Assembly: GCA_044892525.1 (NCBI GenBank)
Contig: CM097885.1
Location: forward strand, 8,992,001-9,056,000
Direction of reading: 5' to 3'
Source: Schmidtea polychroa
Taxonomy: Eukaryota
DNA: 64,000 bases
In this document: piece by piece, positions 19,953-43,613 of the stretch
Layout of the letters: every line of letters starts with the position of its first letter
How positions within the stretch are numbered: the first letter of the stretch is position 1
The notes under the pieces: generated by a model
What the model was told of the DNA's origin: nothing
The model's database searches: none
What the model saw: the letters and a program-made list of their open reading frames with translations, nothing else
Position numbers and translations under genes: made by a program

Positions 19953-20012
<60 letters not shown>

Positions 20013-20031
20013 AAAACTTTAAACAGCTTGC

Positions 20032-20136
<105 letters not shown>

Positions 20137-20285
20137 CTTTAAACAGCTTGCAAGGTTACTAGTCATGCTTATTATACATTTGATGGTTACAATTTCTACA
20201 TTTTGAAAACTATATTTTGATTGGCTATCACAATTTTATAAATGTAAGAACAAAAGTAATTTAGTTATTAAGAAATTTATTACTA

Positions 20286-20903: not shown

Positions 20904-21078
20904 TATCATACTATATATATTTAGTTTACCTTTGTTAATTTTACATTATTTTATTGTTTAAATAAATGTATGTTTTGTTGATTTGTTGAGCGTGACCAGT
21001 ACCCTTGTGAGCATTACCCATAGGGGGACAAAATATTTTGTCGGATAGACTCGGAGTATATAGACTCGGTGTATATAG

Positions 21079-21157
<79 letters not shown>

Positions 21158-21306
21158 TTTTAAACAGCTTGCAAGGTTACTAGTCATGCTTATTATACAT
21201 TTGATGGTTACAATTTCTACATTTTGAAAACTATATTTTGATTGGCTATCACAATTTTATAAATGTAAGAACAAAAGTAATTTAGTTATTAAGAAATTTA
21301 TTACTA

Positions 21307-21945
21307 ATGATTTCTATAAATAAAACTGATGAATGTGTAACACATTTGGTAACTTTATTATTTTGTCAATATTTTTTTTATATATACCATTTATAGCAAG
21401 GAAGTCCTACTAGAAATAAGGAAAAATTATGTCCAACCTATTCCGAAATTTCATTGAAATTTTTTAACAACACAGTTGAAGATTTTATAAATAATCATGA
21501 TACTTACAGTGATAAGCAACTCATAAATATTTTAAAGATTTTCAAACATTCCTCTATTGAATATTTGTTTGATTTATTTAATTATGAGAAATCCATTTTA
21601 AAGTTATCTTGTTATTTAATGTACTTAGAAAAAATAGCAGTAAACAATGATTCACTGAATGAATACTTTTGGAGTTGTATGTATTTAAGGTTGAAACCTG
21701 GATATAGTAGATTGATTTATGATTGGATAGCAAAAACCGATTTGATTGAAAATAAGCTAACGAAAAAACTGAACGAGGTTAAGAAAAGGTATTTAACTTG
21801 TTCAATTTGTAAAGAAAATCGAGTTTCGGTTTTGTATTTACCATGTGGTCATGTAATTGTTTGTTCTAAGTGTCACGAGAAGAATGTTCGCAAGTGTCAA
21901 GCTTGTTCAACATTGATTAATGAATATCATACTATATATATTTAG
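21307..21945 (+). CDS. RING-finger protein, tandem copy 2 (spliced, apparently intact)
   Basis: Same unit as copy 1; ORF track 21454-21945. Confidence 0.85.
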
Positions 21946-22099
21946 TTTACCTTTGTTAATTTTACATTATTTTATTGTTTAAAAAAATGTATGTTTTGTT
22001 GATTTGTTGAGCGTGACCAGTACCCTTGTGAGCATTACCCATAGGGGGACAAAATATTTTGTCGGATAGACTCGGAGTATATAGACTCGGTGTATATAG

Positions 22100-22190
<91 letters not shown>

Positions 22191-22339
22191 CTTTAAACAG
22201 CTTGCAAGGTTACTAGTCATGCTTATTATACATTTGATGGTTACAATTTCTACATTTTGAAAACTATATTTTGATTGGCTATCACAATTTTATAAATGTA
22301 AGAACAAAAGTAATTTAGTTATTAAGAAATTTATTACTA

Positions 22340-22978
22340 ATGATTTCTATAAATAAAACTGATGAATGTGTAACACATTTGGTAACTTTATTATTTTGTC
22401 AATATTTTTTTTATATATACCATTTATAGCAAGGAAGTCCTACTAGAAATAAGGAAAAATTATGTCCAACCTATTCCGAAATTTCATTGAAATTTTTTAA
22501 CAACACAGTTGAAGATTTTATAAATAATCATGATACTTACAGTGATAAGCAACTCATAAATATTTTAAAGATTTTCAAACATTCCTCTATTGAATATTTG
22601 TTTGATTTATTTAATTATGAGAAATCCATTTTAAAGTTATCTTGTTATTTAATGTACTTAGAAAAAATAGCAGTAAACAATGATTCACTGAATGAATACT
22701 TTTGGAGTTGTATGTATTTAAGGTTGAAACCTGGATATAGTAGATTGATTTATGATTGGATAGCAAAAACCGATTTGATTGAAAATAAGCTAACGAAAAA
22801 ACTGAACGAGGTTAAGAAAAGGTATTTAACTTGTTCAATTTGTAAAGAAAATCGAGTTTCGGTTTTGTATTTACCATGTGGTCATGTAATTGTTTGTTCT
22901 AAGTGTCACGAGAAGAATGTTCGCAAGTGTCAAGCCTGTTCAACATTGATTAATGAATATCATACTATATATATTTAG
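22340..22978 (+). CDS. RING-finger protein, tandem copy 3 (spliced, apparently intact)
   Basis: ORF track 22487-22978. Confidence 0.85.
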
Positions 22979-23132
22979 TTTACCTTTGTTAATTTTACAT
23001 TATTTTATTGTTTAAATAAATGTATGTTTTGTTGATTTGTTGAGCGTGACCAGTACCCTTGTGAGCATTACCCATAGGGGGACAAAATATTTTGTCGGAT
23101 AGACTCGGAGTATATAGACTCGGTGTATATAG

Positions 23133-23217
<85 letters not shown>

Positions 23218-23366
23218 CTTTAAACAGCTTGCAAGGTTACTAGTCATGCTTATTATACATTTGATGGTTACAATTTCTACATTTTGAAAACTATATTTTG
23301 ATTGGCTATCACAATTTTATAAATGTAAGAACAAAAGTAATTTAGTTATTAAGAAATTTATTACTA

Positions 23367-24005
23367 ATGATTTCTATAAATAAAACTGATGAATGTGTAA
23401 CACATTTGGTAACTTTATTATTTTGTCAATATTTTTTTTATATATACCATTTATAGCAAGGAAGTCCTACTAGAAATAAGGAAAAATTATGTCCAACCTA
23501 TTCCGAAATTTCATTGAAATTTTTTAACAACACAGTTGAAGATTTTATAAATAATCATGATACTTACAGTGATAAGCAACTCATAAATATTTTAAAGATT
23601 TTCAAACATTCCTCTATTGAATATTTGTTTGATTTATTTAATTATGAGAAATCCATTTTAAAGTTATCTTGTTATTTAATGTACTTAGAAAAAATAGCAG
23701 TAAACAATGATTCACTGAATGAATACTTTTGGAGTTGTATGTATTTAAGGTTGAAACCTGGATATAGTAGATTGATTTATGATTGGATAGCAAAAACCGA
23801 TTTGATTGAAAATAAGCTAACGAAAAAACTGAACGAGGTTAAGAAAAGGTATTTAACTTGTTCAATTTGTAAAGAAAATCGAGTTTCGGTTTTGTATTTA
23901 CCATGTGGTCATGTAATTGTTTGTTCTAAGTGTCACGAGAAGAATGTTCGCAAGTGTCAAGCCTGTTCAACATTGATTAATGAATATCATACTATATATA
24001 TTTAG
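23367..24005 (+). CDS. RING-finger protein, tandem copy 4 (spliced, apparently intact)
   Basis: ORF track 23514-24005. Confidence 0.85.
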
Positions 24006-24167
24006 TTTACCTTTGTTAATTTTACATTATTTTATTGTTTAAATAAATGTATGTTTTGTTGATTTGTTGATTTGTTGAGCGTGACCAGTACCCTTGTGAG
24101 CATTACCCATAGGGGGACAAAATATTTTGTCGGATAGACTCGGATTATATAGACTCGGTGTATATAG

Positions 24168-24237
<70 letters not shown>

Positions 24238-24421
24238 TCTTTAGAAATAATAATCTTAATAACAAGATATATGGCTCATTCGAAAGGCCTTGGATCGAGC
24301 TTTAAAATGAGCTATCGATTTTTAATTTTCGTTGAAGGGAACTTTAAAAAAAAATTTAAAATAAAATAATAATATTTTTTAAAAATAATAATAAAAATAA
24401 TAATATTTTTAAAAATAATAA

Positions 24422-24815
24422 TATGACCTTGATGACTCATCGCGATGACTCATATGAACTTGAGAATGACCTTGGATGAGTCATACGACCTTGAAAATGA
24501 CCTTGGATGAGTCATGCGACCTTGAAAATGACCTTGATGAGTCATAGGATGACTCAGACGACCTTGAAAATGACCTTGAAAAATTTTGATGAGTCATAGT
24601 ATGAGGCATATGACCTTGATAATTTTTGATGAGTCATAGTATGAGTCATATGACCTTGAGAATGACCTTGAATGAGTCATATGACCTTGAGAATGACATT
24701 GAATGACTCATATGACCTTGAGAATGACCTTGAATGAGTCATATGACCTTGAGAATGACCTTGAGTGAGTCATATGACCTTGAGAATGACCTTGAATGAG
24801 TCATATGACCTTACT
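24422..24815. repeat. ~30-bp tandem array of TGACCTTGA and TGASTCA motifs (subterminal repeat); related array at 44062-44600
   Basis: Direct: repeated ATGACCTTGAGAATGACCTTGAATGAGTCAT. Confidence 0.9.
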
Positions 24816-25182
24816 CATGCACTTGTATTGCATATGTCTTTGTATTACACACCTTAAGGATAGAAAAATATTTCTAAGCGAGATCTAAAGTGAATGTGTG
24901 TAAAGGGCAATAAATAAGGGTAAAGTCAAAATTTTTTAAGAAAATACATGTAATTTGATTAAAATTTATGAAAACTATATATATATTTGTTTTATTTTGG
25001 TCAGATAATCTATGTGTGTCTGTATATGAAAACATTGATAAGGAGCAATAAATAATGGACGGTTTTACTCACACACAAGTTTTATATCATTCGAAAGTCT
25101 ACTATATATAATACATAATTGAATCGAATCAAAATAAGGGTAAAATAAATGGTAAAATAAAATGGTCATTATCAGACATTTA

Positions 25183-25226
<44 letters not shown>

Positions 25227-25417
25227 CTATTTATTTTAAATAAAAATATGTAATTATGATCATAGTTAATTTAAGCACATATTTATTTCACTTTTCACAA
25301 AATAATTTTAAAATACCACAACGTAATATATTTTCTATCTTAATTTTAATTGGCTGGAGAAAAAAGTATGCTTTTCATTATAAACATTTTCATTATTACA
25401 AAATAACTTTAGAAATA

Positions 25418-25469
25418 ATGATCACAGACATCGATTACGAAAATGGTATTTTCATTATTTTTTAATTCA

Positions 25470-25506
<37 letters not shown>

Positions 25507-25717
25507 TTTCTAGATAGCGATTGTGTCATAATTGAAGAACATTTTGTTACTTCGATACCTGCAAACGAATATGGACGAAAAAGTTAAATAATAATAATTC
25601 ATTGCTTATTCTTAATTGTCTTTTCCAGGAAATTTTAATGAGGATTCAGTTGATGATTCAGTTGCTTGTGCTGCTGGAACTATTGAATATTTCGCAAAGA
25701 AGATAAAATGTAAGTAA
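25418..25717 (+). CDS. Putative small spliced gene of unknown function (exons 25418-25445, 25514-25582, 25629-25717 or further spliced); mirrored at ~18230-18523 (-)
   Basis: Three GC-richer blocks joined in frame by GT..AG introns give MITDIDYENDSDCVIIEEHF...RKRNFNEDSVDDSVACAAGTIEYFAKKIK; no recognisable domain. Confidence 0.4.
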
Positions 25718-27123
25718 ATTACAAAATTTAACTTAGATTTCTAGTTATATATTTCTTTGTTTAAGAAAATTTAAATTAGTAAAAAATGATATTTAATCAG
25801 ATGTTCATATTTAGATGAATTCATTTAAATAAATTTCTTAAAATTAATGAAAATTAGTAATATATTAATTATTAATTAAAATTAGTACAAAGTTAATATA
25901 TTTACTGAAATTATTTTTTAGACAATATTTTAATTATTGATAAGGAATATTATTTTTTACTATAAGTAATCTAATTATAGAAAAGATATTTATTATACCA
26001 GAATTAAACAGAATTCTGTCACTGATGTCAAATTAAAAAAATATAAACTTCTGCTTTTGATATCTCTGAGAATAATTTTCTAAAACAATTTTCATGAAAA
26101 ATAGGTGAAGAAATTATATACTTTACCTGTTAAAGAAAAGTATGACTACAAAAACAATTGATGTTTCAGATTTTCAATATATAATATTAACAATTTTAAT
26201 TGTATTATAAAAATTTCAGATTTGAAGATAAAAATGTTCATTTATGCAACTCAAATTTTTGCCCAAGTCCTTTGAAGCATAAATAATATACGTATCACAT
26301 AAATACAAATATATTGATATATAAACTGAAAAAAAAGTACAAAGTTAATATATTTACTGAAATTATTTTTTTAGACAATATTAATATAGTTATTGTTAGT
26401 TTATTTTAACTATATTACGACGATCAACTTTAATTTTATTATAAAAAAAAAATGATGAAAGTATAAATAAAACTTCATTTTAAAATCGAATTTTTATTTG
26501 CAATATTATTTTTACATTAATCAACTAAGATGAGATTAATTTAAAATTTGATTGCATCACGAAACTTCTAGTATTTCATGTAAGTGAAATTAAAAGTATA
26601 TGGATTGTTAAATAATTGTCATATTTCTATAGTTCTTTGTTTAAGAAAATTTAAAATAGTAAAAAAAAATGATATTTAATCAGATGTTTATTGGTAAATA
26701 TTTAGATATTTAGATTTAGATTTAGATTTAAATAAATTTCTTAAAATTATTGAGAATTATTGAGACTTTCACTCCAAGGGCCATATATAATAAATTAGTA
26801 CAAAGTTCAAATTTTAAATGAAATTTATTAGACAATATATATATTTTTTAACTATATAAAGACGTTCAACATGAATTTTATTATAAAAAATAATGAAAGT
26901 ATAAATGAAACTTCATTTCAAAAATATGAATTGTGATAAAAAAAAAATTGAACAATTTTGAAATAACTAAGGGCATTCAATAATATTGTAACTCATTAAA
27001 TAAAGTTTACATAGTGAGCTAAATGCTGCCCTTGTCCATTTTTATGGTGTATAGCGGTGAAAAATAAATTTAGAATCGAATGGCCAATACCACTATACTG
27101 CAGTTCCAGATTTACAGCGATTA

Positions 27124-29694
27124 ATGAATTGTAGAAAAACTCATAGTTGCCCAGTCCGTATTCAATGCAGATGGTGCGAGACATGTTTAAATGGTTTTAG
27201 AAGAGAAGATGCTTTTGACAGGCATGTAGCTTTATGCAAGAAAAACCAATTGGGCACAACATTATACACGTTGCCAGAAAACTCAGATTTAAAATTTAAT
27301 GACTGGTCAAAAATGGTAACTCCGCCTTTTGTTATATATGCTGACTTCGAAGCTGTTTTACCTCTTGATGAAAGACAACACCAAAAACATTTACCTATAG
27401 CAGCGGGGCTGTTACTGGTAAATAATTTTACTGGGTCAACGAAATACAGTCATTTTATTGGACCAGATTGTGTATACAGATTTCTGATGGATGTAGAAAA
27501 TATTGTCAACAATATAGTGAAGGTTTATTATAAGACAAGTGGGCATTGTCAAATGAAATTTTTGACAAATCAGGAAAAGCTGCAATTCCACACAGCTGTC
27601 AATTGTTACTTGTGCAAAAAGCCAATGCCAGAGAAAGTGAAAGACCATGATCATTTCACTGGCAAATATCTCGGAGCCTCATGCAATGTATGCAATCAAC
27701 AAAGGAAAATCAGAGAAACATTACCCATCGTATTTCATAATCTGAAAGGGTATGATCTACATCACATTTTGAAATATGGGCTCAATCAATTTCCTCATTG
27801 GAGTCTCAGCTGCATACCAACAAGCACAGAGAAATTTTTAACATTGATAGCATGGCTGGGTAAATTTACAATAAGATTTATTGACTCATATCAGTTTGTC
27901 AATACTTCATTACATAATGCAGTAAAAACATTGAACGAATTGCCTTTGACCCGTTCAGTATTCAATACTGGAACCATCATAAACAACAAAGGAATTTTTC
28001 CTTATGATTTTGCCACAAGTGAGGAAATATTAGAAACAACATATGAATTGCCCGCTATTTGGGAAGGCGTTACAAATGAAGAGTATATAATAGCGCAACA
28101 AATATGGCAAGAAACAAGTTGCGAAACTCTAATGGATTATTTACAAATTTATTTAAAACTTGATGTGTTTTTACTTGCCGATTTTTTCCAACAATTTCGA
28201 GCAAGATCAAAAGCACATAATGGACTCGAGCCACTCAATTTTTTTGGAATCCCTGGAATGTCTTGGGCATCTGCGCTCATGACCTTAGAAGAACCAGTGG
28301 AATTACTGATGGACATGGAGATGTATAATTTCTTCGAGGATGGGATCCGTGGTGGTCTCACATTTGTAAATAAACACTTCGCAGTAACAGATGATGAAAC
28401 AGAGTTGCTTTATATCGATATAAACAACCTGTATGGGTGGGCGTTAAGCCAATACTTGCCATGTAGCGATTTTGAGTGGATATATAATGAAGTGGAATTA
28501 TTATCCATTTTAGTTGACTGTATTAGTTCGAAACTAGAAAATTTAACTTATGGATACACATTGGAAGTTGATTTAGTCATCCCGTCAAATATCCACGACC
28601 TATTAGACGATTTCCCAGTCGTAGCAGAGAAAATGTGTCCACCAGATTCAAATGTACCAAAATTATTATTAACCCATCATGCGAAAACTAATTATGTTAT
28701 TCATTGGAGACTTTTGAAATTATATATGGCCCTTGGAGTGGAAGTCACCAATATACATCGGGCAATAAAATTTACACAAAAGCCGATATTGAAGGATTAT
28801 ATCAACACAAATACCCAACTTCGAGCTGAATCACAAAATAGTTTAGATAGAGATTTTTATAAACTTTTAAATAATAGTGTTTACGGCAAGACAGTGGAGA
28901 ATCTGAAGAAAAGAATAAATCTGAGATTGTGCAACAATGCCGAAAAATTGGTTAAATACACTTCAAAGCCAACATTTAGACGTTCAATTAAAATTGCTGA
29001 TGATTTGATTGCCCTTTTGCTGAATAAAGATGTAGTTTGTTTAGATAGGCCTAGCTACATTGGTCAAACAGTGCTAGACTTATATAAACTTAGAATGTAT
29101 GAACTACAATATATTGAACTGTCAAAATATCGAGCACAGTTCAATTGCCAAATAAATATCATAGCCGGGGATACAGACTCATTCTTCCTCGAATGTAAAT
29201 ATGTCAAATTGCGATCACAATTACTTCCTGCAATGATTGCTGACGGATTGTTAGACACCAGCAACTACGATCCTACAGATCCATTATATTCACGAAATTT
29301 GGATTCTGTAATTGGGAAATTCAAGGACGAAAACAAAGGCAAATCATATGAAGAATGGGTATTCCTCAGACCCAAATGCTATAGTTTGCTAACTAGTGAT
29401 AATGATACTATAAATAAAGCCAAAGGTGTATCATTAAAGGGAACAGAAATCACACATCAATCGTATGTGGATTGTTATCTTGGAATGCATATACCGAAGG
29501 TGAATCAATCCCGGTTTGATACACGAAACCATCAATTATTTACATTTAGAACTAAGAAGGTAGCCCTTACAAATAACGATGATAAAAGGGTTTGGGTTGA
29601 AGAGAACAAGAGCTTCGCATATGGGCATTATAATATTTTAGATAATGAATTAAATAATATTTTGCCTCTTGATGAATCATCTGCAGACGAATGA
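27124..29694 (+). CDS. polB: Polinton/adintovirus protein-primed family B DNA polymerase; the N-terminal region upstream is degraded
   Basis: Exonuclease motifs YADFE, FHNLKGYD, FIDSY; HNH/endonuclease-VII-like insert CYLC..DHDHFTG..CNVCN; polymerase motifs YIDINNLYGWAL, KLLNNSVYGKT, GDTDS, GKFKDE, RPKCY, KAKGV; in-frame HYTAVPDLQRL precedes the Met, implying 5' loss. Confidence 0.95.
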   Translation: MNCRKTHSCPVRIQCRWCETCLNGFRREDAFDRHVALCKKNQLGTTLYTLPENSDLKFNDWSKMVTPPFVIYADFEAVLPLDERQHQKHLPIAAGLLLVNNFTGSTKYSHFIGPDCVYRFLMDVENIVNNIVKVYYKTSGHCQMKFLTNQEKLQFHTAVNCYLCKKPMPEKVKDHDHFTGKYLGASCNVCNQQRKIRETLPIVFHNLKGYDLHHILKYGLNQFPHWSLSCIPTSTEKFLTLIAWLGKFTIRFIDSYQFVNTSLHNAVKTLNELPLTRSVFNTGTIINNKGIFPYDFATSEEILETTYELPAIWEGVTNEEYIIAQQIWQETSCETLMDYLQIYLKLDVFLLADFFQQFRARSKAHNGLEPLNFFGIPGMSWASALMTLEEPVELLMDMEMYNFFEDGIRGGLTFVNKHFAVTDDETELLYIDINNLYGWALSQYLPCSDFEWIYNEVELLSILVDCISSKLENLTYGYTLEVDLVIPSNIHDLLDDFPVVAEKMCPPDSNVPKLLLTHHAKTNYVIHWRLLKLYMALGVEVTNIHRAIKFTQKPILKDYINTNTQLRAESQNSLDRDFYKLLNNSVYGKTVENLKKRINLRLCNNAEKLVKYTSKPTFRRSIKIADDLIALLLNKDVVCLDRPSYIGQTVLDLYKLRMYELQYIELSKYRAQFNCQINIIAGDTDSFFLECKYVKLRSQLLPAMIADGLLDTSNYDPTDPLYSRNLDSVIGKFKDENKGKSYEEWVFLRPKCYSLLTSDNDTINKAKGVSLKGTEITHQSYVDCYLGMHIPKVNQSRFDTRNHQLFTFRTKKVALTNNDDKRVWVEENKSFAYGHYNILDNELNNILPLDESSADE

Positions 29695-29700
29695 TAATGA

Positions 29701-29949
29701 TTAATGGTAATGATTTATCCGTTTTATTTTTAAAAATATTTTTATTTTTATTTTAGTTTCTGTACAGTTTCTCCAGTTTTGACACAGTTTCTGAACAGTT
29801 TTGAAAACAGATGAGAACGAACCACCAATATAATGATTCATTTGTAACTTTTGTAATGGCACTTGTTGTAACCAATATAATTGTCCTTTTAATGCATATT
29901 GGTTCTCATAATTATGTTTATTTTTATTGCGTTGGTTCTCTTTTGAGTC
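29701..29949 (-). CDS. Possible small element gene, terminal exon (DSKENQ...GQLYWLQQVPLQKLQMNHYIGGSFSSVF...)
   Basis: Open non-repetitive frame convergent on polB, starting right after a TTTAG; start or upstream exon not established. Confidence 0.35.
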   Translation of the reverse strand, partial: DSKENQRNKNKHNYENQYALKGQLYWLQQVPLQKLQMNHYIGGSFSSVFKTVQKLCQNWRNCTETKIKIKIFLKIKRINHYH

Positions 29950-30025
29950 CTAAATATTTTATTGTGAATGTGTATACGTCCTCTTTAGGACTGCAAATAT
30001 TGATTGCATTTATTGTTGAGAAACG

Positions 30026-30063
<38 letters not shown>

Positions 30064-30080
30064 CTTTATTATTATTATTA

Positions 30081-30196
<116 letters not shown>

Positions 30197-30345
30197 GTTA
30201 TTATTTTTATTATTTTTATTATTAATATTATTAATAAATTCAAGGCTCAAAATATATTTTTATATATATTTTACATTTATTATACATAATTCAGTAACGA
30301 CTTTGTTTAAATAAAGTAACACAACATTTTTTACAATACATTTAT

Positions 30346-30724
30346 TTAACAAAGATGTTTATACATTAGCCAAGCTAGACAATGTTGTCCACAAGTATTT
30401 GTTAATGGATGTTGAAACCGAATTTTATTGTAATCAACTTGACCAATAGTTGATAGCTTTTTGATCAATAGGGCTGGATAGTAAAATCCCATTGGATCGA
30501 AAACATATATTTTATTCGGCTTCACATAGACTGCAATCCAATGTTCTCCACCCAGAGTAGACGAATCTGTGTTGACAATTATGGCTTGATTCACATCTAA
30601 ATAGGGGATTTTGTCTAGTGGGTACACTCCAACAAACTCTTTACCTAATATTTGAGTACCAATTCGATTTATCTGAATAGAACTAACATAATAATTTTAT
30701 TAGTTTAAAGAAAACTTACTCCAT
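30346..30724 (-). CDS. Adenain-like cysteine maturation protease (exon 1 30724-30720, 37-nt intron 30719-30683, exon 2 30682-30346)
   Basis: VNTDSSTLGGEHWIA, FDPMG, FQHPLTNTCGQHC (His/Asp/Gln/Cys); no in-frame ATG unless ATGGA/gtaagt...ttag/TTCT is spliced, giving MDSIQINRIG. Confidence 0.88.
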
Positions 30725-30753
30725 GACAAATGTATTTCGATTTATTCACACAT

Positions 30754-30898
30754 TTATACTAGCACAGTTCTATTTGCAGTAATTTGAACTTCATTTTCAA
30801 ATACTCCATATATAATAACATGTACCGGTTCAGTAATGGCTCTTGCAAACTTTATATCCAGTCGTAAATTCCCGTTTTGTGGTAATTGACTCTGATTT
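30754..30898 (-). pseudogene. C-terminal remnant of the major capsid (hexon-like, double jelly-roll) gene
   Basis: NQSQLPQNGNLRLDIKFARAITEPVHVIIYGVFENEVQITANRTVLV*, resembling Polinton MCP C-termini; longer homologous piece at 53782-54177. Confidence 0.8.
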
Positions 30899-30970
30899 TA
30901 GCCATCCTGATCCGTACTGTTTACCAACGAAGTATGGTAATTCACCGCCAGATTGGCTATCACTATACAT
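30899..30970 (-). pseudogene. N-terminal remnant of a PZ-like virion protein, fused by deletion to the MCP tail
   Basis: MYSDSQSGGELPYFVGKQYGSGWL: QxGG..P.F.G..Q.G.G pattern, located between penton and MCP as in Mavericks. Confidence 0.6.
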
Positions 30971-30986
30971 ACTAATAATATCAGAA

Positions 30987-32054
30987 TTAGCCATCTACTT
31001 TACGAAAATGTAATGTCAAATGAGTATTCGAATCTTTTGGAAAGTTTATAAGGTTTCCACTATCGTCACGAATATTTATTTCTATATTGTTTATACATGA
31101 GCTTGCAATTGGTAAATACATGGGATTATCGATATTTATATTGACAACTTCATCGTGTTCATATTTTCCAATCCATACCGATTTCAATAGAGGAACACTG
31201 GAATCACCAACAATTATGGGCTCAATAATATTAGTATATATGAACATTTGTTGATGATGTTCAAGTATTCTTGGTTTACGTATACCATCAGCTTTTCCTC
31301 GATATTTTTGCTTCTCTAATCCAAGTGTATTTGTCAAATTTTTATCAAATGTAACTTCGCAAATTTCATCATTCAAACTGAAAGTAAACAACAAATCTTT
31401 CACAATGTCCAAACTTTTAAATATGTGTGAACAATTGTACTTTAAATATTTAAGTAACACATCAAGTTTATCAATATATAATTCGTCAGCAAAGGTGAAT
31501 GATTTCTCAACTTCATTATTATACGACACTGATATTTTGATTTCTTCTTTCATTAAACTGTTTGCTTCAAATAGATCAAAACGTAATAAATATTCTGTTT
31601 CCATAACATCATTTTTCAACTTATTGCAACCCATTCGTTTGGCATCTTCAATAGTTTCGAATGTTATTGTAAATGGTTTAAAATCACAACTGATATTTAA
31701 TCCATCCTTGTAAAATATATAGCAATGCTGATCTAATATTTGATTCGGAATATGATATGTTTTATCATAATTACTGATGACAAAGATACCGCTACATGTT
31801 TTCAGAACATTCTTTTTGAAATCAATCTTACATTGACTATAAAATGGGAATGTGTTGTACACGAATGTAAAATCTTGAAGTGCAACTTCCCAGTCACCAT
31901 TTAAAGAAATCGGATTCTGGAGATTGACCATGAATTTGCTGAATTGATTGTCCGGATGAATTAATGGGCAGCTATTGCTTGGTAAAATAGTATAGAAATT
32001 CACTTTACTAGGTCCTTTTCTGATATCCATGATGGGTTTTGATATCCATGCCAT
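30987..32054 (-). CDS. Minor capsid protein (penton-like)
   Basis: FYTILPSNS..PDN..SKF..L..PI.L.GDWEVAL N-terminus and MFIYTNIIEPIIVGDSSVPLL...IEINIRDDSG..I.F...LTLHFR C-terminus; start uncertain because it overlaps the integrase end. Confidence 0.85.
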   Translation of the reverse strand: MAWISKPIMDIRKGPSKVNFYTILPSNSCPLIHPDNQFSKFMVNLQNPISLNGDWEVALQDFTFVYNTFPFYSQCKIDFKKNVLKTCSGIFVISNYDKTYHIPNQILDQHCYIFYKDGLNISCDFKPFTITFETIEDAKRMGCNKLKNDVMETEYLLRFDLFEANSLMKEEIKISVSYNNEVEKSFTFADELYIDKLDVLLKYLKYNCSHIFKSLDIVKDLLFTFSLNDEICEVTFDKNLTNTLGLEKQKYRGKADGIRKPRILEHHQQMFIYTNIIEPIIVGDSSVPLLKSVWIGKYEHDEVVNINIDNPMYLPIASSCINNIEINIRDDSGNLINFPKDSNTHLTLHFRKVDG

Positions 32055-32638
32055 TTGACATAGTATTGTTTATCCTTGCCGACCTTTTTAGTTTTCAATA
32101 TTTTTTGAATTCTTAATACTTTTGGAGGAGGAATAACTTGTAATTCTTGCTCATAAAATTTTCCTTGTACAATATTATTATCATTGTCTTTAATGACATA
32201 CATTACTTGACTCTGGCTAGTATTTATTTTCAAAATTACAAAGACTTCATCACTCCAATTTGTATCGAAATTTTTTATAAATGGTGATGCACTAATTTTA
32301 CTAATTCTAACATGGTCACCTACTTTATATTTAGGTTTTGCAATTTTTACATGTTTTTTAGAATAGAATGTTTTTGAAGTGATATCAATCGGTCTTAATC
32401 CATTCAGTCCTCGATGTGATGAATGATTATAACTGGTTATTATTTTTGGTAAAACATTTACCCATTTTTTATTACCTTGATGCACAAATAATTTCTTTAA
32501 TCTATCTCTCAAAGTTCGGTTAAATCTTTCAACATAAGCTGCTTTGTATTGAGAATATACTGTGTAATGGTTTATTTTCAGTTTATTGAGGATTTGCTTG
32601 ACTTTACTGTTGTAGAATTCTTTACCTAAAAAAAAAAT

Positions 32639-32691
<53 letters not shown>

Positions 32692-33079
32692 CTAAATCTG
32701 TTTGCAAGTTATTAGGATGTCCTTTTTTAAATAAATTATTAATAGCTTTGGACATTTCATCTGCAGATTTTGCCTTGACTGGAATCGCTCGGGCAAACCG
32801 ACTGAATACATCAATACATGTTAAAATATATTTATAACCATTGTTAATTTTTGAATATGGTATCATCTCCATCAAATCCATTTGCCATAAATCGTTTATT
32901 CCAAATGTTTTATATGTTCTTGTTGGGAATCGTTTCTGCATTGGTTTGTTCAAACTGTACGCAAGCTGGTCTGATAACCACTTCTGGGTTTCCTTTTTCG
33001 AATTTGGAACTCTTTTCTTTAATTTTGCGACTCCACCGAAACCCGCTTCGTCTTCTGGGTTTGTCCAAATCTTCTCCAT
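32000..33079 (-). CDS. Retroviral-like (rve) DDE integrase with C-terminal chromodomain; 66-nt intron 32691-32626
   Basis: WQMDL, QTDLG/KEF, VERFNRT, KYKVGDHVRI, and chromodomain IQKILK..QYYVKWHGY..SWI; the poly-Ile insert is bounded by GT..AG. Confidence 0.93.
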
Positions 33080-33140
33080 TACAACAAGAAGATTTAATAT
33101 TAAATTTAATGTCAGGTAATGAAGGATTAGCTCCCATTGT

Positions 33141-33629
33141 TTATGACTGTGTTACTCCACCTAATAATGATAATGCCAAAGGTATCAATGCACCAATAAA
33201 TCCGCCTTGTTGTTTATATATAATTTTTCTCATTTGTTTACGATTTTTATTATTTACTAATGATAACAAAGGTTTCCTATGTTTACTCAATATATGCTTT
33301 TTGGATTTACTGATTTTAATCTTGCCTTTGACTACTTTAAGTATAATATCCAGTAAATCATCGACAACAAAATTTGGAAATGATTGCAAAATATTCATTC
33401 TTTTTATACTCGGTGCCTTTAACAATGTATTAAAAAACGGGAAACTCCGATGATTTTTAACAACTTTTAATTTCTTACTGGTTTTACGGTTAGGTTTAGG
33501 TTTAGGATTTTTCGAAATAAGATTTTTTGCAGGAAAATTTTCAGTAACAAGTTCTTTAGATGGAGTATAACTAGTGGTTGGTGGAATTTTTGGTTCTTTC
33601 TTCCTTGTTATCCTTGTTTTTGAAAACAT
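33141..33629 (-). CDS. Basic virion-associated protein with QQGG/F cleavage-like site and hydrophobic tail
   Basis: Lys/Arg-rich 162 aa ending KQQGGFIGALIPLALSLLGG, between ATPase and integrase; function inferred by analogy to adenain-cleaved precursors. Confidence 0.75.
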   Translation of the reverse strand: MFSKTRITRKKEPKIPPTTSYTPSKELVTENFPAKNLISKNPKPKPNRKTSKKLKVVKNHRSFPFFNTLLKAPSIKRMNILQSFPNFVVDDLLDIILKVVKGKIKISKSKKHILSKHRKPLLSLVNNKNRKQMRKIIYKQQGGFIGALIPLALSLLGGVTQS

Positions 33630-33641
33630 GTTTTATATGTT

Positions 33642-34280
33642 TCAACTTTGTTTTGAATTTTGTTTATAAACCATGGCACCTTTTGGGTTGAAAATATCAG
33701 TTTTTACCCGTAAATCATCAGGACATTGTTGTGTGAAATCAAGAAATATATATCCATGCGGTATTTTAGTAGCATCTTGAAATGCACTGATAAGAAAATT
33801 ACGGTTATTAGGGTATGCTTGTCGTCCAAGAAAATCAATGACAGTTGCATCTCTAGGATTCTTGAAAATAACTAAATATTGTACATTTAAATTACGTGTA
33901 CGATGTGCACCACCTTGATGAAATAGATTTTGTGTTATGAAAATAACTGTTACACCGACATGTCTGCTGATTTTTGTGAATAAATTATTAAAATCTTTTT
34001 CTTTATTGGCTTCTTGGTATAAATCATCGATAATGATGACATCACCTTTCTTCAACCGACTGGACCAGTTTTTATCAAATCCCTTTACTATTTTCATGTT
34101 TTTCAACTGACAGAAACTTGATTGCGTCAATCCATGTTCTTCGTCGGCGCCCCTATGCCAATAAATATTGTTGAATTTTGTTTTGAATAAATTTGATTTT
34201 AGTATTTTACAAACAAATAATGTTTTTCCGCTACCGCTTGGACCAACGATTTGGTATACTGCATCATTTCGTAATTTCAT
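33642..34280 (-). CDS. A32/FtsK-like genome packaging ATPase
   Basis: Walker A GPSGSGKT, Walker B IIIDD, ISRH, ITQNLF, FKNPRD. Confidence 0.93.
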   Translation of the reverse strand: MKLRNDAVYQIVGPSGSGKTLFVCKILKSNLFKTKFNNIYWHRGADEEHGLTQSSFCQLKNMKIVKGFDKNWSSRLKKGDVIIIDDLYQEANKEKDFNNLFTKISRHVGVTVIFITQNLFHQGGAHRTRNLNVQYLVIFKNPRDATVIDFLGRQAYPNNRNFLISAFQDATKIPHGYIFLDFTQQCPDDLRVKTDIFNPKGAMVYKQNSKQS

Positions 34281-34381
34281 TTTTTAAATTTAAACTACAT
34301 AATTATTGTTTATATTGATAATTTAAATGAACTCCGTTTTAAAATAAATATATATATGAGTTTTATAATTATTTCATTAAA

Positions 34382-34845
34382 ATGCTTTCAAATATAAATT
34401 ACAGAGCAAAAGCTGATGTATCAAAAATGGTATTTCCAATGGGGAAACCACAACAACTTATCAATAGAAGTAAAAAATATCCCATAATATATTTCAAAAC
34501 TGGTAAATGTAGAATTATGGGGTGTAAGGAAATAATCAAAGCTAGTGAATATAATGTTTATGATTTAAAAATACAATCGATAACCGTAACTTCCTATATG
34601 GGTTTTCTTGTAATTTAAATGAATTGGCTAAATTAATACCATGTGTTTACGAACCAGAATTATTTCCAGCTTTGAGATATATAAAATATAACCCTATGTG
34701 TGTAAATATATTCGCTAGTGGTAAGATAGTAATTCTTGGAATAAAAAATATTGATTACAAATGTATAGTTGATAATATCATATCTGAAATTAAATCAATA
34801 ATTGAAGGAAAAGAATTTTTAAATTTTTTATTATCACTTAATTAA
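34382..34845 (+). pseudogene. TATA-binding-protein (TBP)-like gene, ~154 aa, one frameshift at ~34612
   Basis: IYFKTGKCRIMGCK, LKIQSI, YEPELFPALRY and VNIFASGKIVILG align by eye with TBP motifs IFSSGKMVCTGAK, FKIQNM, YEPELFPGLIY and LLIFVSGKVVLTG; one added A joins the two ORFs (FLVNLNELAKL). Confidence 0.85.
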
Positions 34846-34981
34846 TAATTTTAAAAAATAAAATCATGTGATTGCAAATTCGATGCAACTGAAATGCATG
34901 ATTCTGATTGGTCGAAATCTAATTGGCTGATGATGATTATTTATAACAAAATGTTTTGGGTTTAGTTATCATTTTTAAACC

Positions 34982-35354
34982 ATGTATAATATTCAAAGTT
35001 CAGCTATAGCTGCCATGAAAGAACATGAACATTATGGTAAATTTAAATTTTTTAATATTAATTGTATTTATCATATTATTATTATTTACAGATGAATATC
35101 ATGCAATAATACTGGAAAGATTGTATTTTTATTACCCGCAATTGTATGATATTCTCAAAGATCGAGATGTTGCAATAATCCCAGATTTAATTTACAATGA
35201 AACCAGAATCTGGATTTTCGATATTATCAATACATTTCTCTGGGATGTGAAGATTGGAAGAACAATGAAGGAAGTGGAAGCAGAATACCCTTGCATTTTG
35301 GGATGTAGCTGTTGCAATTTCGCTACCAGAGATATGTCGAATGGTCTTTGGTAA
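34982..35354 (+). CDS. Hypothetical element protein (exon 34982-35036, 55-nt intron 35037-35091, exon 35092-35354), Cys-rich C-terminus
   Basis: Splicing gives MYNIQSSAIAAMKEHEHY-D-EYHAIILERL...PCILGCSCCNF; upstream GATTGG/TATAA, downstream AATAAA. Confidence 0.65.
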
Positions 35355-35465
35355 AGACACTTCGTAATTATCATTTTTGTCAAATTTTATCCAAATAAAT
35401 TTTTATGTTTAACTATTTGTTGTTTTATTTTTTTTTTAGTAAATAGTAATAGAAATATAAATAAG

Positions 35466-35569
<104 letters not shown>

Positions 35570-35757
35570 TAATGAAATTAGTTTGAAAGTAATAAAAGCA
35601 ATAAAAATAATAATATGACACATATAACATATGACAATGCAACATCAATGCATTTTGAATGTAATTAAAACAAAGACATACTGCAATTTGATTGGTTTAT
35701 AAACAATAGTCATATGTATAAAAACCCTGTACCATTACAATTCAATCATAATTCACG

Positions 35758-36180
35758 ATGACCAAGAAAATATCAAGCACAGAAAAACCAAAGGTTGTTG
35801 TTGCAGAACTTGTACAACCTGTTCAAATGTTCCACGACTACAAAATGTATTTTTTAAAAGAAGAAATCAATATGAAATTGGTGTCACCGATCAAGCTAAT
35901 TTCTACTCAATTTCAATTCTTATCCGGCACACTTTCAATGATAGATGTTGAATCTATTGATGAGGTTTTCAAACGGTTGGATGCAAATCTATCATGTAAT
36001 CAACATGCATGGTTCAACAACCGATATGCAAGATTTTATGATTCCTTTGATGAAATCAGCTTTAAAGAAAACGAAAATTGGTATATAACAATAGCAATCT
36101 TGGGATATAAAGTTGATAATAATGATGTGTATTCTCCAATTTGGAAAATTATGTCTGCTAGACTTTCACAGCTATTTTAA
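35758..36180 (+). CDS. Hypothetical 140-aa element protein (possible OB-fold ssDNA-binding protein)
   Basis: Clean ATG ORF with TATAAAA 41 nt upstream and AATAAA at the stop; the fold assignment is only a guess from the beta-rich aromatic C-terminus. Confidence 0.65.
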   Translation: MTKKISSTEKPKVVVAELVQPVQMFHDYKMYFLKEEINMKLVSPIKLISTQFQFLSGTLSMIDVESIDEVFKRLDANLSCNQHAWFNNRYARFYDSFDEISFKENENWYITIAILGYKVDNNDVYSPIWKIMSARLSQLF

Positions 36181-36338
36181 TAAATGTTGCTATATTTATT
36201 GTTTTTAATAAATGTATTTTGTCCTATTTGTTTTTCATTTACTTAACCAGGAAATTGCAATATCAATGCAAAATACATGCAAACTTTAAAAAAGACATTC
36301 TATAAACAAACTTACATTATAGTTTTAAAGTGTTAATA

Positions 36339-36760
36339 ATGACGTTAGAAAAAGGTTAATATGGTTAGTTAATGATCGAATTATTTATTGTTTAGAACAT
36401 TTAATCAACTTTTTGTTGGCAAAATTAGCAGAAATATCTGGTGTAAAAATGGAGGATATATTATCTGTTTCAAATGCATTAAATATAGACTGGGTAGCCG
36501 AGAGTGAAGATTCAAGATTTGATGAAACTGATGAGGAAATAACAGAACAAATTAATGAAGGAAACACACAAGAAGATGACGAGGAAATCATTCAAGAAAT
36601 TGATGAACCTATTGATGAACCTAAGGAGGAATTTACGGATTATATAACTGAAAATATTAAGTATACCGAACCGCGTGTATATAACGATTGTATAGATCAT
36701 ATCGTTGAAAATGTTATGAAATGCGGAGATGATGAATGTGAATGTGTTAATAAATTTTAG
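36339..36760 (+). CDS. Hypothetical acidic protein (exon 36339-36354, 41-nt intron 36355-36395, exon 36396-36760)
   Basis: Splicing gives MTLEKEHLINFLLAKLAE in frame with track ORF 36413; TATAAA at 36301. Confidence 0.6.
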
Positions 36761-36837
36761 TTTGAGTGTATATTTAAAGTATAATATTTATAAATAACAA
36801 CATTAACTTTTATTTAAATATTTAAACATTACATATA

Positions 36838-39800
36838 TTAGGTAGAAGTGAGCCCACGATAACTCATCGTTAAGGTCAACTTAAGGTCATAGAAAATTTT
36901 GAGGTCAACTTAAGGTCAAATTTTAAGGTCAATGTCATTTTCAATAAAAATTTATTTAAAACTTGATGTGTTTTTACTTGCCGATTTCTTCCAACAATTT
37001 CGAGCAAGATCAAAAGCACATAATGGACTCGAGCCACTCAATTTTTTTGGAATCCCTGGAATGTCTTGGGCATCTGCGCTCATGACCTTAGAAGAACCAG
37101 TGGAATTACTGATGGACATGGAGATGTATAATTTCTTCGAGGATGGGATCCGTGGTGGTCTCACATTTGTAAATAAACACTTCGCAGTAACAGATGATGA
37201 AACAGAGTTGCTTTATATCGATATAAACAACCTGTATGGGTGGGCGTTAAGCCAATACTTGCCATGTAGCGATTTTGAGTGGATATATAATGAAGTGGAA
37301 TTATTATCCATTTTAGTTGACTGTATTAGTTCCAAACTAGAAAATTTAACTTATGGATACACATTGGAAGTTGATTTAGTCATCCCGTCAAATATCCACG
37401 ACCTATTAGACGATTTCCCAGTCGTAGCAGAGAAAATGTGTCCACCAGATTCAAATGTACCAAAATTATTATTAACCCATCATGCGAAAACTAATTATGT
37501 TATTCATTGGAGACTTTTGAAATTATATATGGCCCTTGGAGTGGAAGTCACCAATATACATCGGGCAATAAAATTTACACAAAAGCCGATATTGAAGGAT
37601 TATATCAACACAAATACCCAACTTCGAGCTGAATCACAAAATAGTTTAGATAGAGATTTTTATAAACTTTTAAATAATAGTGTTTACGGCAAGACAGTGG
37701 AGAATCTGAAGAAAAGAATAAATCTGAGATTGTGCAACAATGCCGAAAAATTGGTTAAATACACTTCAAAGCCAACATTTAGACGTTCAATTAAAATTGC
37801 TGATGATTTGATTGCCCTTTTGCTGAATAAAGATGTAGTTTGTTTAGATAGGCCTAGCTACATTGGTCAAACAGTGCTAGACTTATCTAAACTTAGAATG
37901 TATGAACTACAATATATTGAACTGTCAAAATATCGAGCACAGTTCAATTGCCAAATAAATATCATAGCCGGGGATACAGACTCATTCTTCCTCGAATGTA
38001 AATATGTCAAATTGCGATCACAATTACTTCCTGCAATGATTGCTGACGGATTGTTAGACAGCAGCAACTACGATCCTACAGATCCATTATATTCACGAAA
38101 TTTGGATTCTGTAATTGGGAAATTCAAGGACGAAAACAAAGGCAAATCATATGAAGAATGGGTATTCCTCAGACCCAAATGCTATAGTTTGCTAACTAGT
38201 GATAATGATACTATAAATAAAGCCAAAGGTGTATCATTAAAGGGAACAGAAATCACACATCAATCGTATGTGGATTGTTATCTTGGAATGCATATACCGA
38301 AGGTGAATCAATCCCGGTTTGGTACACGAAACCATCAATTATTTACATTTAGAACTAAGAAGGTAGCCCTTACAAATAACGATGATAAAAGGGTTTGGGT
38401 TGAAGAGAACAAGAGCTTCGCATATGGGCATTATAATATTTTAGATAATGAATTAAATAATATTTTGCCTCTTGATGAATCATCTGCAGACGAATGATAA
38501 TGATTAATGGTAATGATTTATCCGTTTTATTTTTAAAAATATTTTTATTTTTATTTTAGTTTCTGTACAGTTTCTCCAGTTTTGACACAGTTTCTGAACA
38601 GTTTTGAAAACAGATGAGAACGAACCACCAATATAATGATTCATTTGTAACTTTTGTAATGGCACTTGTTGTATACATGAGCTTGCAATTGGTAAATACA
38701 TGGGATTATCGATATTTATATTGACAACTTCATCGTGTTCATATTTTCCAATCCATACCGATTTCAATAGAGGAACACTGGAATCACCAACAATTATGGG
38801 CTCAATAATATTAGTATATATGAACATTTGTTGATGATGTTCAAGTATTCTTGGTTTACGTATACCATCAGCTTTTCCTCGATATTTTTGCTTCTCTAAT
38901 CCAAGTGTATTTGTCAAATTTTTATCAAATGTAACTTCGCAAATTTCATCATTCAAACTGAAAGTAAACAACAAATCTTTCACAATGTCCAAACTTTTAA
39001 ATATGTGTGAACAATTGTACTTTAAATATTTAAGTAACACATCAAGTTTATCAATATATAATTCGTCAGCAAAGGTGAATGATTTCTCAACTTCATTATT
39101 ATACGACACTGATATTTTGATTTCTTCTTTCATTAAACTGTTTGCTTCAAATAGATCAAAACGTAATAAATATTCTGTTTCCATAACATCATTTTTCAAC
39201 TTATTGCAACCCATTCGTTTGGCATCTTCAATAGTTTCGAATGTTATTGTAAATGGTTTAAAATCACAACTGATATTTAATCCATCCTTGTAAAATATAT
39301 AGCAATGCTGATCTAATATTTGATTCGGAATATGATATGTTTTATCATAATTACTGATGACAAAGATACCGCTACATGTTTTCAGAACATTCTTTTTGAA
39401 ATCAATCTTACATTGACTATAAAATGGGAATGTGTTGTACACGAATGTAAAATCTTGCAGTGCAACTTCCCAGTCACCATTTAAAGAAATCGGATTCTGG
39501 AGATTGACCATGAATTTGCTGGCTTGATTGTCCGGATGAATTAATGGGCAGCTATTGCTTGGTAAAATAGTATAGAAATTCACTTTACTAGGTCCTTTTC
39601 TGATATCCATGATGGGTTTTGATATCCATGCCATTTGACATAGTATTGTTTATCCTTGCCGACCTTTTTAGTTTTCAATATTTTTTGAATTCTAAATACT
39701 TTTGGAGGAGGAATAACTTGTAATTCTTGCTCATAAAATTTTCCTTGTACAACATTATTATCATTGTCTTTAATGACATACATTACTTGACTCTGGCTAG

Positions 39801-40216
39801 TATTTATTTTCAAAATTACAAAGACTTCATCACTCCAATTTGTATCGAAATTTTTTATAAATGGTGATGCACTAATTTTACTAATTCTAACATGGTCACC
39901 TACTTTATATTTAGGTTTTGCAATTTTTACATGTTTTTTAGAATAGAATGTTTTTGAAGTGATATCAATCGGTCTTAATCCATTCAGTCCTCGATGTGAT
40001 GAATGATTATAACTGGTTATTATTTTTGGTAAAACATTTACCCATTTTTTATTACCTTGATGCACAAATAATTTCTTTAATCTATCTCTCAAAGTTCGGT
40101 TAAATCTTTCAACATAAGCTGCTTTGTATTGAGAATATACTGTGTAATGGTTTATTTTCAGTTTATTGAGGATTTGCTTGACTTTACTGTTGTAGAATTC
40201 TTTACCTAAAAAAAAT

Positions 40217-40272
<56 letters not shown>

Positions 40273-41890
40273 CTAAATCTGTTTGCAAGTTATTAGGATG
40301 TCCTTTTTTAAATAAATTATTAATAGCTTTGGACATTTCATCTGCAGATTTTGCCTTGACTGGAATCGCTCGGGCAAACCGACTGAATACATCAATACAT
40401 GTTAAAATATATTTATAACCATTGTTAATTTTTGAATATGGTATCATCTCCATCAAATCCATTTGCCATAAATCGTTTATTCCAAATGTTTTATATGTTC
40501 TTGTTGGGAATCGTTTCTGCATTGGTTTGTTCAAACTGTACGCAAGCTGGTCTGATAACCACTTCTGGGTTTCCTTTTTCGAATTTGGAACTCTTTTCTT
40601 TAATTTTGCGACTCCACCGAAACCCGCTTCGTCTTCTGGGTTTGTCCAAATCTTCTCCATTACAACAAGAAGATTTAATATTAAATTTAATGTCAGGTAA
40701 TGAAGGATTAGCTCCCATTGTTTATGACTGTGTTACTCCACCTAATAATGATAATGCCAAAGGTATCAATGCACCAATAAATCCGCCTTGTTGTTTATAT
40801 ATAATTTTTCTCATTTGTTTACGATTTTTATTATTTACTAATGATAACAAAGGTTTCCTATGTTTACTCAATATATGCTTTTTGGATTTACTGATTTTAA
40901 TCTTGCCTTTGACTACTTTAAGTATAATATCCAGTAAATCATCGACAACAAAATTTGGAAATGATTGCAAAATATTCATTCTTTTTATACTCGGTGCCTT
41001 TAACAATGTATTAAAAAACGGGAAACTCCGATGATTTTTAACAACTTTTAATTTCTTACTGGTTTTACGGTTAGGTTTAGGTTTAGGATTTTTCGAAATA
41101 AGATTTTTTGCAGGAAAATTTTCAGTAACAAGTTCTTTAGATGGAGTATAACTAGTGGTTGGTGGAATTTTTGGTTCTTTCTTCCTTGTTATCCTTGTTT
41201 TTGAAAACATGTTTTATATGTTTCAACTTTGTTTTGAATTTTGTTTATAAACCATGGCACCTTTTGGGTTGAAAATATCAGTTTTTACCCGTAAATCATC
41301 AGGACATTGTTGTGTGAAATCAAGAAATATATATCCATGCGGTATTTTAGTAGCATCTTGAAATGCACTGATAAGAAAATTACGGTTATTAGGGTATGCT
41401 TGTCGTCCAAGAAAATCAATGACAGTTGCATCTCTAGGATTCTTGAAAATAACTAAATATTGTACATTTAAATTACGTGTACGATGTGCACCACCTTGAT
41501 GAAATAGATTTTGTGTTATGAAAATAACTGTTACACCGACATGTCTGCTGATTTTTGTGAATAAATTATTAAAATCTTTTTCTTTATTGGCTTCTTGGTA
41601 TAAATCATCGATAATGATGACATCACCTTAAAATTTGGAAAAATTAGACTTTGGCATCAGAAGTTGACCTTAAAATAGCCTAAAATCGACTTTGACCTCA
41701 AGATTTGACCTTAAAATGGCCTAAAATCGACTTTGACCTCAGAATTTGACATTAAAATGGCTTAAATTGACCTTAAACTGTCCTGAAAATGACATTGACC
41801 TTAAAATTTGACCTTAAGTTGACCTCAAAATTTTCTATGACCTTAAGTTGACCTTAACGATGAGTCATCGTGGGCTCACTTCTACCTACT
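36838..41890. mobile_element. ~5-kb TIR-bounded deletion derivative of the same Polinton: 5'-truncated polB 36948-38497 (+), penton 38672-39634 (-, C-terminus deleted), integrase 39580-40660 (-, 67-nt intron 40272-40206), basic protein 40722-41210 (-), ATPase fragment 41223-41628 (-)
   Basis: Near-identical to 28145-29870 and 31092-34048; ends are inverted copies of the GTAGAAGTGAGCCCACG block. Confidence 0.85.
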
Positions 41891-42974: not shown

Positions 42975-43613
42975 ATGATTTCTATAAATAAAACTGATGA
43001 ATGTGTAACACATTTGGTAACTTTATTATTTTGTCAATATTTTTTTTATATATACCATTTATAGCAAGGAAGTCCTACTAGAAATAAGGAAAAATTATGT
43101 CCAACCTATTCCGAAATTTCATTGAAATTTTTTAACAACACAGTTGAAGATTTTATAAATAATCATGATACTTACAGTGATAAGCAACTCATAAATATTT
43201 TAAAGATTTTCAAACATTCCTCTATTGAATATTTGTTTGATTTATTTAATTATGAGAAATCCATTTTAAAGTTATCTTGTTATTTAATGTACTTAGAAAA
43301 AATAGCAGTAAACAATGATTCACTGAATGAATACTTTTGGAGTTGTATGTATTTAAGGTTGAAACCTGGATATAGTAGATTGATTTATGATTGGATAGCA
43401 AAAACCGATTTGATTGAAAATAAGCTAACGAAAAAACTGAACGAGGTTAAGAAAAGGTATTTAACTTGTTCAATTTGTAAAGAAAATCGAGTTTCGGTTT
43501 TGTATTTACCACGTGGTCATGTAATTGTTTGTTCTAAGTGTCACGAGAAGAATGTTCGCAAGTGTCAAGCCTGTTCAACATTGATTAATGAATATCATAC
43601 TATATATATTTAG
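42975..43613 (+). CDS. RING-finger protein, copy 5 (Cys>Arg in RING: LPRGH)
   Basis: ORF track 43122-43613; within a duplicate (41785-~44280) of the 19075-24815 block carrying one RING unit. Confidence 0.8.

Follow-up and report, generated by a model that had tools for sequence, protein, structure and literature searches.

A putative lineage-specific intron at the catalytic motif of a Polinton-type integrase

Background

Elements of the Polinton/Maverick type are marked by terminal inverted repeats and a 6-bp target duplication. One study is said to have found spliceosomal introns in an endogenous giant virus. For Polintons, an rve integrase with a C-terminal chromodomain has been described (PMC8502044). 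The element reported here resembles those Polintons in its pPolB, weak chromodomain, A32-type ATPase and adenain protease, but its integrase is interrupted at the D-x-G motif, a position at which 306 of 316 related proteins are continuous. Polintons are listed among the actively repressed transposons of planarians (PMC10558129).

Introns are known in the integrase-type enzyme family, since the Ginger1 transposases, which are encoded by integrase-type DDE genes, carry 1–4 mostly GT-AG introns (Bao et al. 2010, PMC2836005). Unlike the present element, Gingers are cut-and-paste transposons and lack pPolB and virion genes (PMC2836005). Polinton-like viruses of protists contain group I introns (PMC12220804), and in dinoflagellates about 25% of the maverick-polinton-like proviral elements contain introners, most of them gained after integration (PMC11957031). 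The passages available from PMC8502044, 10.1101/2023.08.22.554363, 10.64898/2026.07.28.741278 and PMC6431247 do not mention spliced Polinton integrases. The literature searched, of which subscription journals, Repbase reports and supplements were not part, yielded no description of an animal Polinton whose integrase gene has a spliceosomal intron.

AGGT proto-splice sites can gain introns in several ways, among them tandem duplication, the insertion of a transposon and the repair of breaks, and most new introns have no traceable origin (PMC3443670). In Daphnia, parallel gains at one site are common among neointrons (43 of 90; PMC4202315).

Results and discussion

The Polinton-type elements and their neighbourhood

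The window (the whole stretch of DNA that was analysed, 64 kb) contains three copies of the integrase gene. Copy 1 lies on the minus strand and is split by the insert into an upstream part (32,692–33,079) and a downstream part (32,000–32,625). The upstream part starts with MEKIW and holds WQMDL and QTDLG, the two catalytic aspartate motifs, which were placed by comparison with solved retroviral integrases. The downstream part begins KEFY, contains VERFNRT with the catalytic glutamate and ends in a weak chromodomain. The integrase matches Pfam rve (PF00665, E 4.9e-8). The same element encodes a pPolB (27,061–29,694, plus strand; Pfam DNA_pol_B_2, PF03175, E 1.8e-29), an adenain-type cysteine protease (30,346–30,696, minus; Peptidase_C5, PF00770, E 2.9e-7) and a packaging ATPase (33,642–34,283, minus; Pox_A32, PF04665, E 1.1e-6), and by this predicted gene content it is of the Polinton/Maverick type. 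Its gene order is that of a metagenomic relative, locus L001, in which the integrase is 62–65% identical and uninterrupted. The ORF that follows the integrase (30,987–32,002, minus) is, by its position, a putative minor capsid gene; it is 33% identical to the syntenic ORF of L001, and its look-alikes in the Atlas are unnamed proteins, the top two mostly viral.

Copy 2 of the integrase (39,580–40,660, minus) lies in a rearranged partial duplicate (36,945–41,629) of the copy 1 element and, along 2964 nt, matches copy 1 at 99.7% identity. Copy 3 (52,443–53,596, plus) is 90–94% identical to copy 1, has insert ends of its own and is decayed: outside the insert it shows 5 indels and 2 new stops. The elements that carry the three copies are all defective, because the copy 1 element keeps just the last 47 codons of an ORF that measures 469 aa in L001, the copy 2 segment is truncated (the protease is missing from it, as are the 5' portions of both the ATPase and pPolB) and copy 3 is decayed. 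The 469-aa ORF of L001 is, by position, probably the major capsid gene; it had no match in Pfam or PDB. These 47 codons of the 469-aa-type ORF are joined to the beginning of another ORF at a deletion joint (30,757–30,988, minus). Loose contig ends at 30,896–30,902 in sequencing runs X8 and X12 fit other copies that continue at this point.

Several further features were seen in and around the elements. Head to head with the ATPase, the copy 1 element carries a TBP-like gene in two overlapping frames (34,343–34,845, plus; Pfam TBP, E 4.4e-10). A small ORF starting MGANPS (32,910–33,140, minus) overlaps the start of the integrase in a different frame. Over the first 20 residues of this ORF the identity with L001 is 80%, and its product is possibly myristoylated. 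A RING-finger gene is present in four tandem copies (20,376–24,005, plus), with one more at 43,065–43,613 (plus); the units are separated by (AAT)n arrays of differing length, and L001 has one homologue adjoining its ATPase. The pPolB region is duplicated in inverted orientation (14,766–19,053 versus 24,894–29,178, 99.4% identical). Residues 174–214 of the pPolB at 27,061–29,694 (plus), and the corresponding pPolB at 14,789–16,882 (minus), show a weak HNH-type (endonuclease VII) match just below the Pfam cut-off, a domain that has been called unique to the pPolB2 of nematodes and oomycetes (10.1101/2023.08.22.554363). A TRAF/MATH-domain gene (50,037–51,152, plus), a retroelement RNase H fragment (48,705–49,202, minus) and a second pPolB in pieces (56,212–57,542, minus; DNA about 66% identical) were also found.

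Anatomy of the insert

Re-reading of all three copies bore out the coordinates and lengths given in the initial annotation. The insert measures 66 nt in copy 1 (32,626–32,691, minus), 67 nt in copy 2 (40,206–40,272, minus) and 150 nt in copy 3 (52,821–52,970, plus). In each copy it begins with GT, ends with AG and has a body of (ATT)n, and in each it follows the first base of the Gly codon in the D-x-G-x-E-F motif, two residues past the second catalytic aspartate. Removal of the insert joins QTDLG to KEFYN, as had been claimed; the flanks are in register with homologues, and the exon text at the site reads TTTAG|GTAAAG.

The copy 1 insert (66 nt at 3% GC) consists of GT, (ATT)16, TTAAT, T10 and AG. 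A YTRAY branch-point-like motif (32,639–32,643, minus; its A at -15), a motif match only, is the sole interruption of the array, and a T10 pyrimidine tract (32,628–32,637, minus) stands ahead of the AG. At their 3' ends the inserts of copies 1 and 2 read TTAAT, then A, then a T-run (10 in copy 1, 8 in copy 2) and finally AG; copy 2 has 17 ATT units and the A of its YTRAY motif at -13. Copy 3 runs from GTAAT to AAG, has 25 + 16 units and lacks both the T-tract and YTRAY. A direct repeat is common to both ends of the insert; it measures 6 nt in copy 3 and 8 nt in the other two copies. In copy 1 it lies across the donor end at 32,689–32,696 and across the acceptor end at 32,623–32,630 (both minus).

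The frame was said not to be kept. This holds for copy 2, the only shifted insert of the three, which has one ATT more and a T-run of 8 instead of 10, a difference that could be a homopolymer error. In copies 1 and 3 the insert lengths, 66 and 150 nt, are divisible by three and neither insert contains a stop, and copy 1 forms one open frame of 359 codons to which the insert adds 22 mostly Ile residues. The argument from length variation is weak, because only one of the three lengths leaves the frame and the copies do not count as separate witnesses. As internal comparative evidence the three copies therefore weigh less than had been assumed, copy 2 being a 99.7% duplicate of copy 1. That copy 2 may be functional, as was also suggested, agrees with its break lying wholly inside the insert and with coding parts that differ from those of copy 1 by 2 substitutions; the segment is, however, truncated.

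The in-frame inserts of copies 1 and 3 would be expected if the insert were translated as a poly-Ile stretch, 22 residues long in copy 1 and 50 in copy 3, either looped out of the catalytic domain or giving an inactive product, with the one-base shift of copy 2 a sequencing error or a later mutation. The 3-nt repeat unit, in which slippage preserves the frame, fits such a translated stretch, but it would preserve the frame with or without selection, and in view of the relatives described below we hold translation to be very unlikely.

The repeat itself is ordinary at this site, because ATT arrays are common in the window, with 24 runs of at least 6 units in 64 kb. Their presence everywhere in the window, together with the defective state of all three elements, is what would be seen if the insert were an ATT-rich filler lesion at a fragile site, bounded by a target duplication of 6–8 nt, which inactivated the integrase and later spread by copying between non-autonomous elements, these relying on integrase supplied by other genomic copies that have no insert. 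The GT and AG ends would then be automatic, as the target contains AGGT. Against this, AGGT occurs in only about 1–1.5% of possible targets: elsewhere in the integrase coding sequence it was found in 9 of 1001 6-nt windows and 15 of 997 8-nt windows, frequencies which take no account of the site having been picked for its ends. We consider such a lesion unlikely overall, on this and on the evidence from relatives, selection and splice signals.

The same site in related integrases

With P0001 as query, solved retroviral integrases were matched, and the insert site aligns to their T-D-x-G active-site motif, which argues against a translated insert. Of the 120 proteins from a first search, a pattern anchored 116, and in every one of these D-x-G-x-E-F is free of any insert. 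The initial annotation had called for the site to be compared in related Polintons, and this comparison was extended to 316 related integrase-like proteins, a set which holds some near-duplicates and is biased toward unbroken frames. The 306 proteins that are continuous at the motif, with collinear flanks on either side, comprise 294 scored by script and 12 scored by eye in the script output. One of the remaining ten has a 2-residue deletion, four leave the frame at the Gly codon and five end before the site. Since none of the 316 has an in-frame insert at the motif, an insert at the protein level looks untolerated there, which again speaks against translation.

The four proteins that break at the Gly codon came from a search for short proteins over the region and from cluster members of its matches. 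Two of them, P0250 and P0284 (from JGI and Logan), end QTDLG-KIII-stop; along their first 130 residues the identity is 76% for P0250 and 75% for P0284. In P0285 (ENA, 93% identical) the text past the Gly codon runs INIIIFII and reaches a stop after 17 residues. These three are protein texts only, from which GT and AG ends and a downstream part can be surmised, and their breaks could be contig artefacts at a repeat. The fourth, P0248, a 93% relative identical to P0285 upstream, skips from the Gly codon straight to the C-terminal 14 residues of the integrase, either by a deletion or by a misassembly starting at the insert site. Three of the 15 intron starts in the window read alike in phase 1 (two in the host, at 8890, GKIIILY, and 8421, GINF; one in the pPolB leader, at 25,446, GIFIIF-stop). 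P0400 (IIIIGK followed by integrase text at 75%) was rejected as support, since it has more gaps and its gene model seems to be chimeric.

The reading as translated poly-Ile is opposed by P0250, P0284 and P0285, which reach stops within 4–17 codons. For a filler lesion the same-codon break in a lineage only about 75% identical is difficult, since it requires either function with the insert or repeated events, although the large deletion of P0248, which starts at that codon, suggests a fragile site.

Uninterrupted relatives as close as P0250 exist (76–78% identity), which speaks against an intron. No uninterrupted protein more than 78% identical over the first 130 residues was found in the collection, which holds few proteins of the host; this, too, speaks against a lesion beside intact copies, within the same limits of the collection. 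In a tree of 52 N-terminal parts both interrupted lineages stand in an open fork, with one origin of the insert in 17% of the bootstrap trees, and a single origin was not rejected by the AU test (p 0.42). The inserts may share a common ancestor.

Metagenome contigs yielded two relative loci, of which L001 spans the site and is uninterrupted. Three scans of viral contigs gave no integrase relatives (none of 31 pattern matches was upheld by tblastn), and genome contigs gave 0 matches.

Selection on the integrase

Copies 1 and 3 diverged under purifying selection before the insert, where 15 synonymous and 9 non-synonymous changes were counted over 122 codons (dN/dS 0.13, P 8e-6). After the insert there are 11 synonymous and 25 non-synonymous changes over 205 codons, and the ratio is not significant (dN/dS 0.58, P 0.11). 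When both parts are pooled, 26 of 60 changes are synonymous (P 6e-5). For two neighbouring genes, with dN/dS of 0.62 and 0.41, selection was not significant.

Because synonymous divergence is unequal on the two sides of the insert (0.20 before and 0.09 after), copy 3 is possibly a mosaic, and the upstream selection may be older than the insert. If the insert predates the split of copies 1 and 3, the integrase kept working while carrying it. The upstream dN/dS of 0.13 between two insert-bearing copies speaks against an insertion that killed the gene.

Splice signals and host introns

Ten candidate host introns were located from the edges of homology and from a phase without stops. They are 43–60 nt long with loose donors (GTAT in 2 of 10), have YTRAY at -13 to -30 in 8 of 10, and end in AAG in 1 of 10, like copy 3. 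Many such introns of 43–60 nt lie in a CHD3/4/5-type host gene (420–13,557, plus), which is divergent and has its best named matches in animals (55%). The inserts, at 66–150 nt, are at least as long as this short-intron class, and all three have the donor and acceptor dinucleotides of U2-type introns. Copies 1 and 2 combine YTRAY at -15 and -13 with the strongest T-tracts of the set, and the decayed copy 3 has neither; these are motif matches only, YTRAY being frequent in AT-rich DNA and counted here without a shuffled control. In copies 1 and 2 the branch-like motif and T-tract are located where an intron requires them, which speaks against a filler lesion. One host intron, at 8890, begins GTAAG and continues as (ATT)42.

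The pPolB leader offers a parallel. At 25,418–25,710 (plus) and 18,317–18,495 (minus) it consists of three small stop-free pieces in phase 1, with two candidate introns between them. Candidate intron 1 (25,446–25,513, plus) is a GT..AG interval filled with (AT)n, 68 nt long here and 64 nt in the inverted copy (18,495–18,432), and it resembles the integrase insert in that its length changes by the repeat regardless of frame. Candidate intron 2 (25,583–25,628, plus; 46 nt, GT..AG) has the A of a YTRAY motif at -14. The chain from the leader pieces to the main pPolB ORF could not be closed.

In 19,074–36,900, of which 57% is coding, 14 of 15 microsatellite runs, at about 6 independent sites, lie outside coding pieces, and the integrase insert is the exception. 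This gives modest support to an intron, as AT-rich spacers seed repeats more easily.

Sequencing-run contigs

Contigs of four runs were compared over 30,300–35,400, namely X8 and X12 (guessed to be RNA), X1 from the same organism A, and X9 from organism B. No run recorded as RNA contained the stretch. In all four runs there are contigs to the left and to the right of the site; the interval 32,625–32,700 is masked as repeat, so the junction is unread in them, and masking alone accounts for the depth in the bin with the insert. One joint and 15 loose ends fell in the masked interval, and 15 of the 177 other joints were displayed. The one joint could be an insert-free DNA form, as expected if the insert were a lesion absent from other copies. 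The element family is abundant in organism A, with 41,740 matching contigs in run X1, for which the summed depth is no copy number.

The masked site, together with the error-prone lengths of microsatellites and T-runs (66 versus 67 nt may be such an error), would also allow the insert to be an assembly artefact, a repeat that was misplaced or missized. This we judge highly improbable: copy 3, 6% diverged, has its own insert ends, and proteins of three other sources break at the same codon.

Origin of the insert

The most probable explanation of these observations is that the insert is a lineage-specific, phase-1, U2-type spliceosomal intron at an AG|GT site, and that it is spliced. The initial annotation had come to an intron as well, and as the likeliest reading this stands, probably on grounds other than those first given; the length variation within the window, mostly in frame, does not carry it. 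The insert is probably a young intron in the style of the host.

According to this explanation, one branch of animal Polintons (Maverick, adintovirus-type) would have gained an intron in its integrase gene. TTTAG|GTAAAG would be a good acceptor and a good donor at once, so that a staggered insertion or a short duplication across it would leave a donor on the left and an acceptor on the right, both working, with the protein unchanged. The interior, free of coding constraint, would have been filled with the commonest microsatellite of the host, and its length would therefore drift, with the branch-point-like motif and T-tract persisting in those copies that have decayed less. The insert would be cut out of the mRNA by the spliceosome of the host, making integrase output dependent on host splicing, and transcripts that retain it would give a protein broken beside the catalytic aspartate.

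An origin by AGGT duplication and repeat expansion, as first proposed, fits the direct repeats of 6–8 nt but is indistinguishable from two alternatives, filler left by repair and an ordinary AT-rich intron into which the repeat spread afterwards. Like known gains at AGGT, the insert has an AG|GT site and short direct repeats at both ends, but it differs from them in lying in a viral-type gene and in having an interior of almost pure (ATT)n (PMC3443670). The repeats do not prove the route of gain, because direct repeats of at least 5 nt flank old introns as often as new ones (26% versus 25%; PMC3443670). A retroposon with a (TAA)n tail and target duplication is a possible source of filler; no duplications flanking other ATT arrays in the window were obvious by eye.

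Two other identities were rejected. The members of an introner family are transposons that have their sequence in common and occupy many sites (PMC11957031), whereas the insert is, within the window, a bare ATT array at one homologous site, with no shared non-repeat sequence and in an animal-type host. A self-splicing intron or an intein was discounted by inspection, the insert being 66 nt at 3% GC.

A more specific version, which we regard as doubtful, holds that the intron was born in the element by a 6–8 nt duplication across AGGT and is now a host-controlled switch on transposition. The weak donor and the slippage-prone ATT and T runs might allow splicing to be tuned according to cell type or to the state of small RNAs; transcripts that keep the intron would yield poly-Ile or truncated inactive integrase, and spliced ones alone the enzyme. 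The third intron of the P element in flies is a comparable splicing switch on transposition. If such a switch existed here, a virus-like element in thousands of copies would be tied to the host spliceosome at its active site, and its copies would form a natural allele series for watching an intron arise.

Conclusions

If the insert were a lesion only, it would be an ordinary microsatellite in dead copies. If it is an intron, which we favour, virus-like elements would adapt to host splicing. Polinton genes are usually found as open frames, and an intron at the active site would make working families look dead, so that they would be lost from surveys. With uninterrupted relatives at 76–78% identity, interrupted ones at 75–93%, an AGGT repeat and many copies, the site is well suited for testing how an intron is gained and whether this happens repeatedly.
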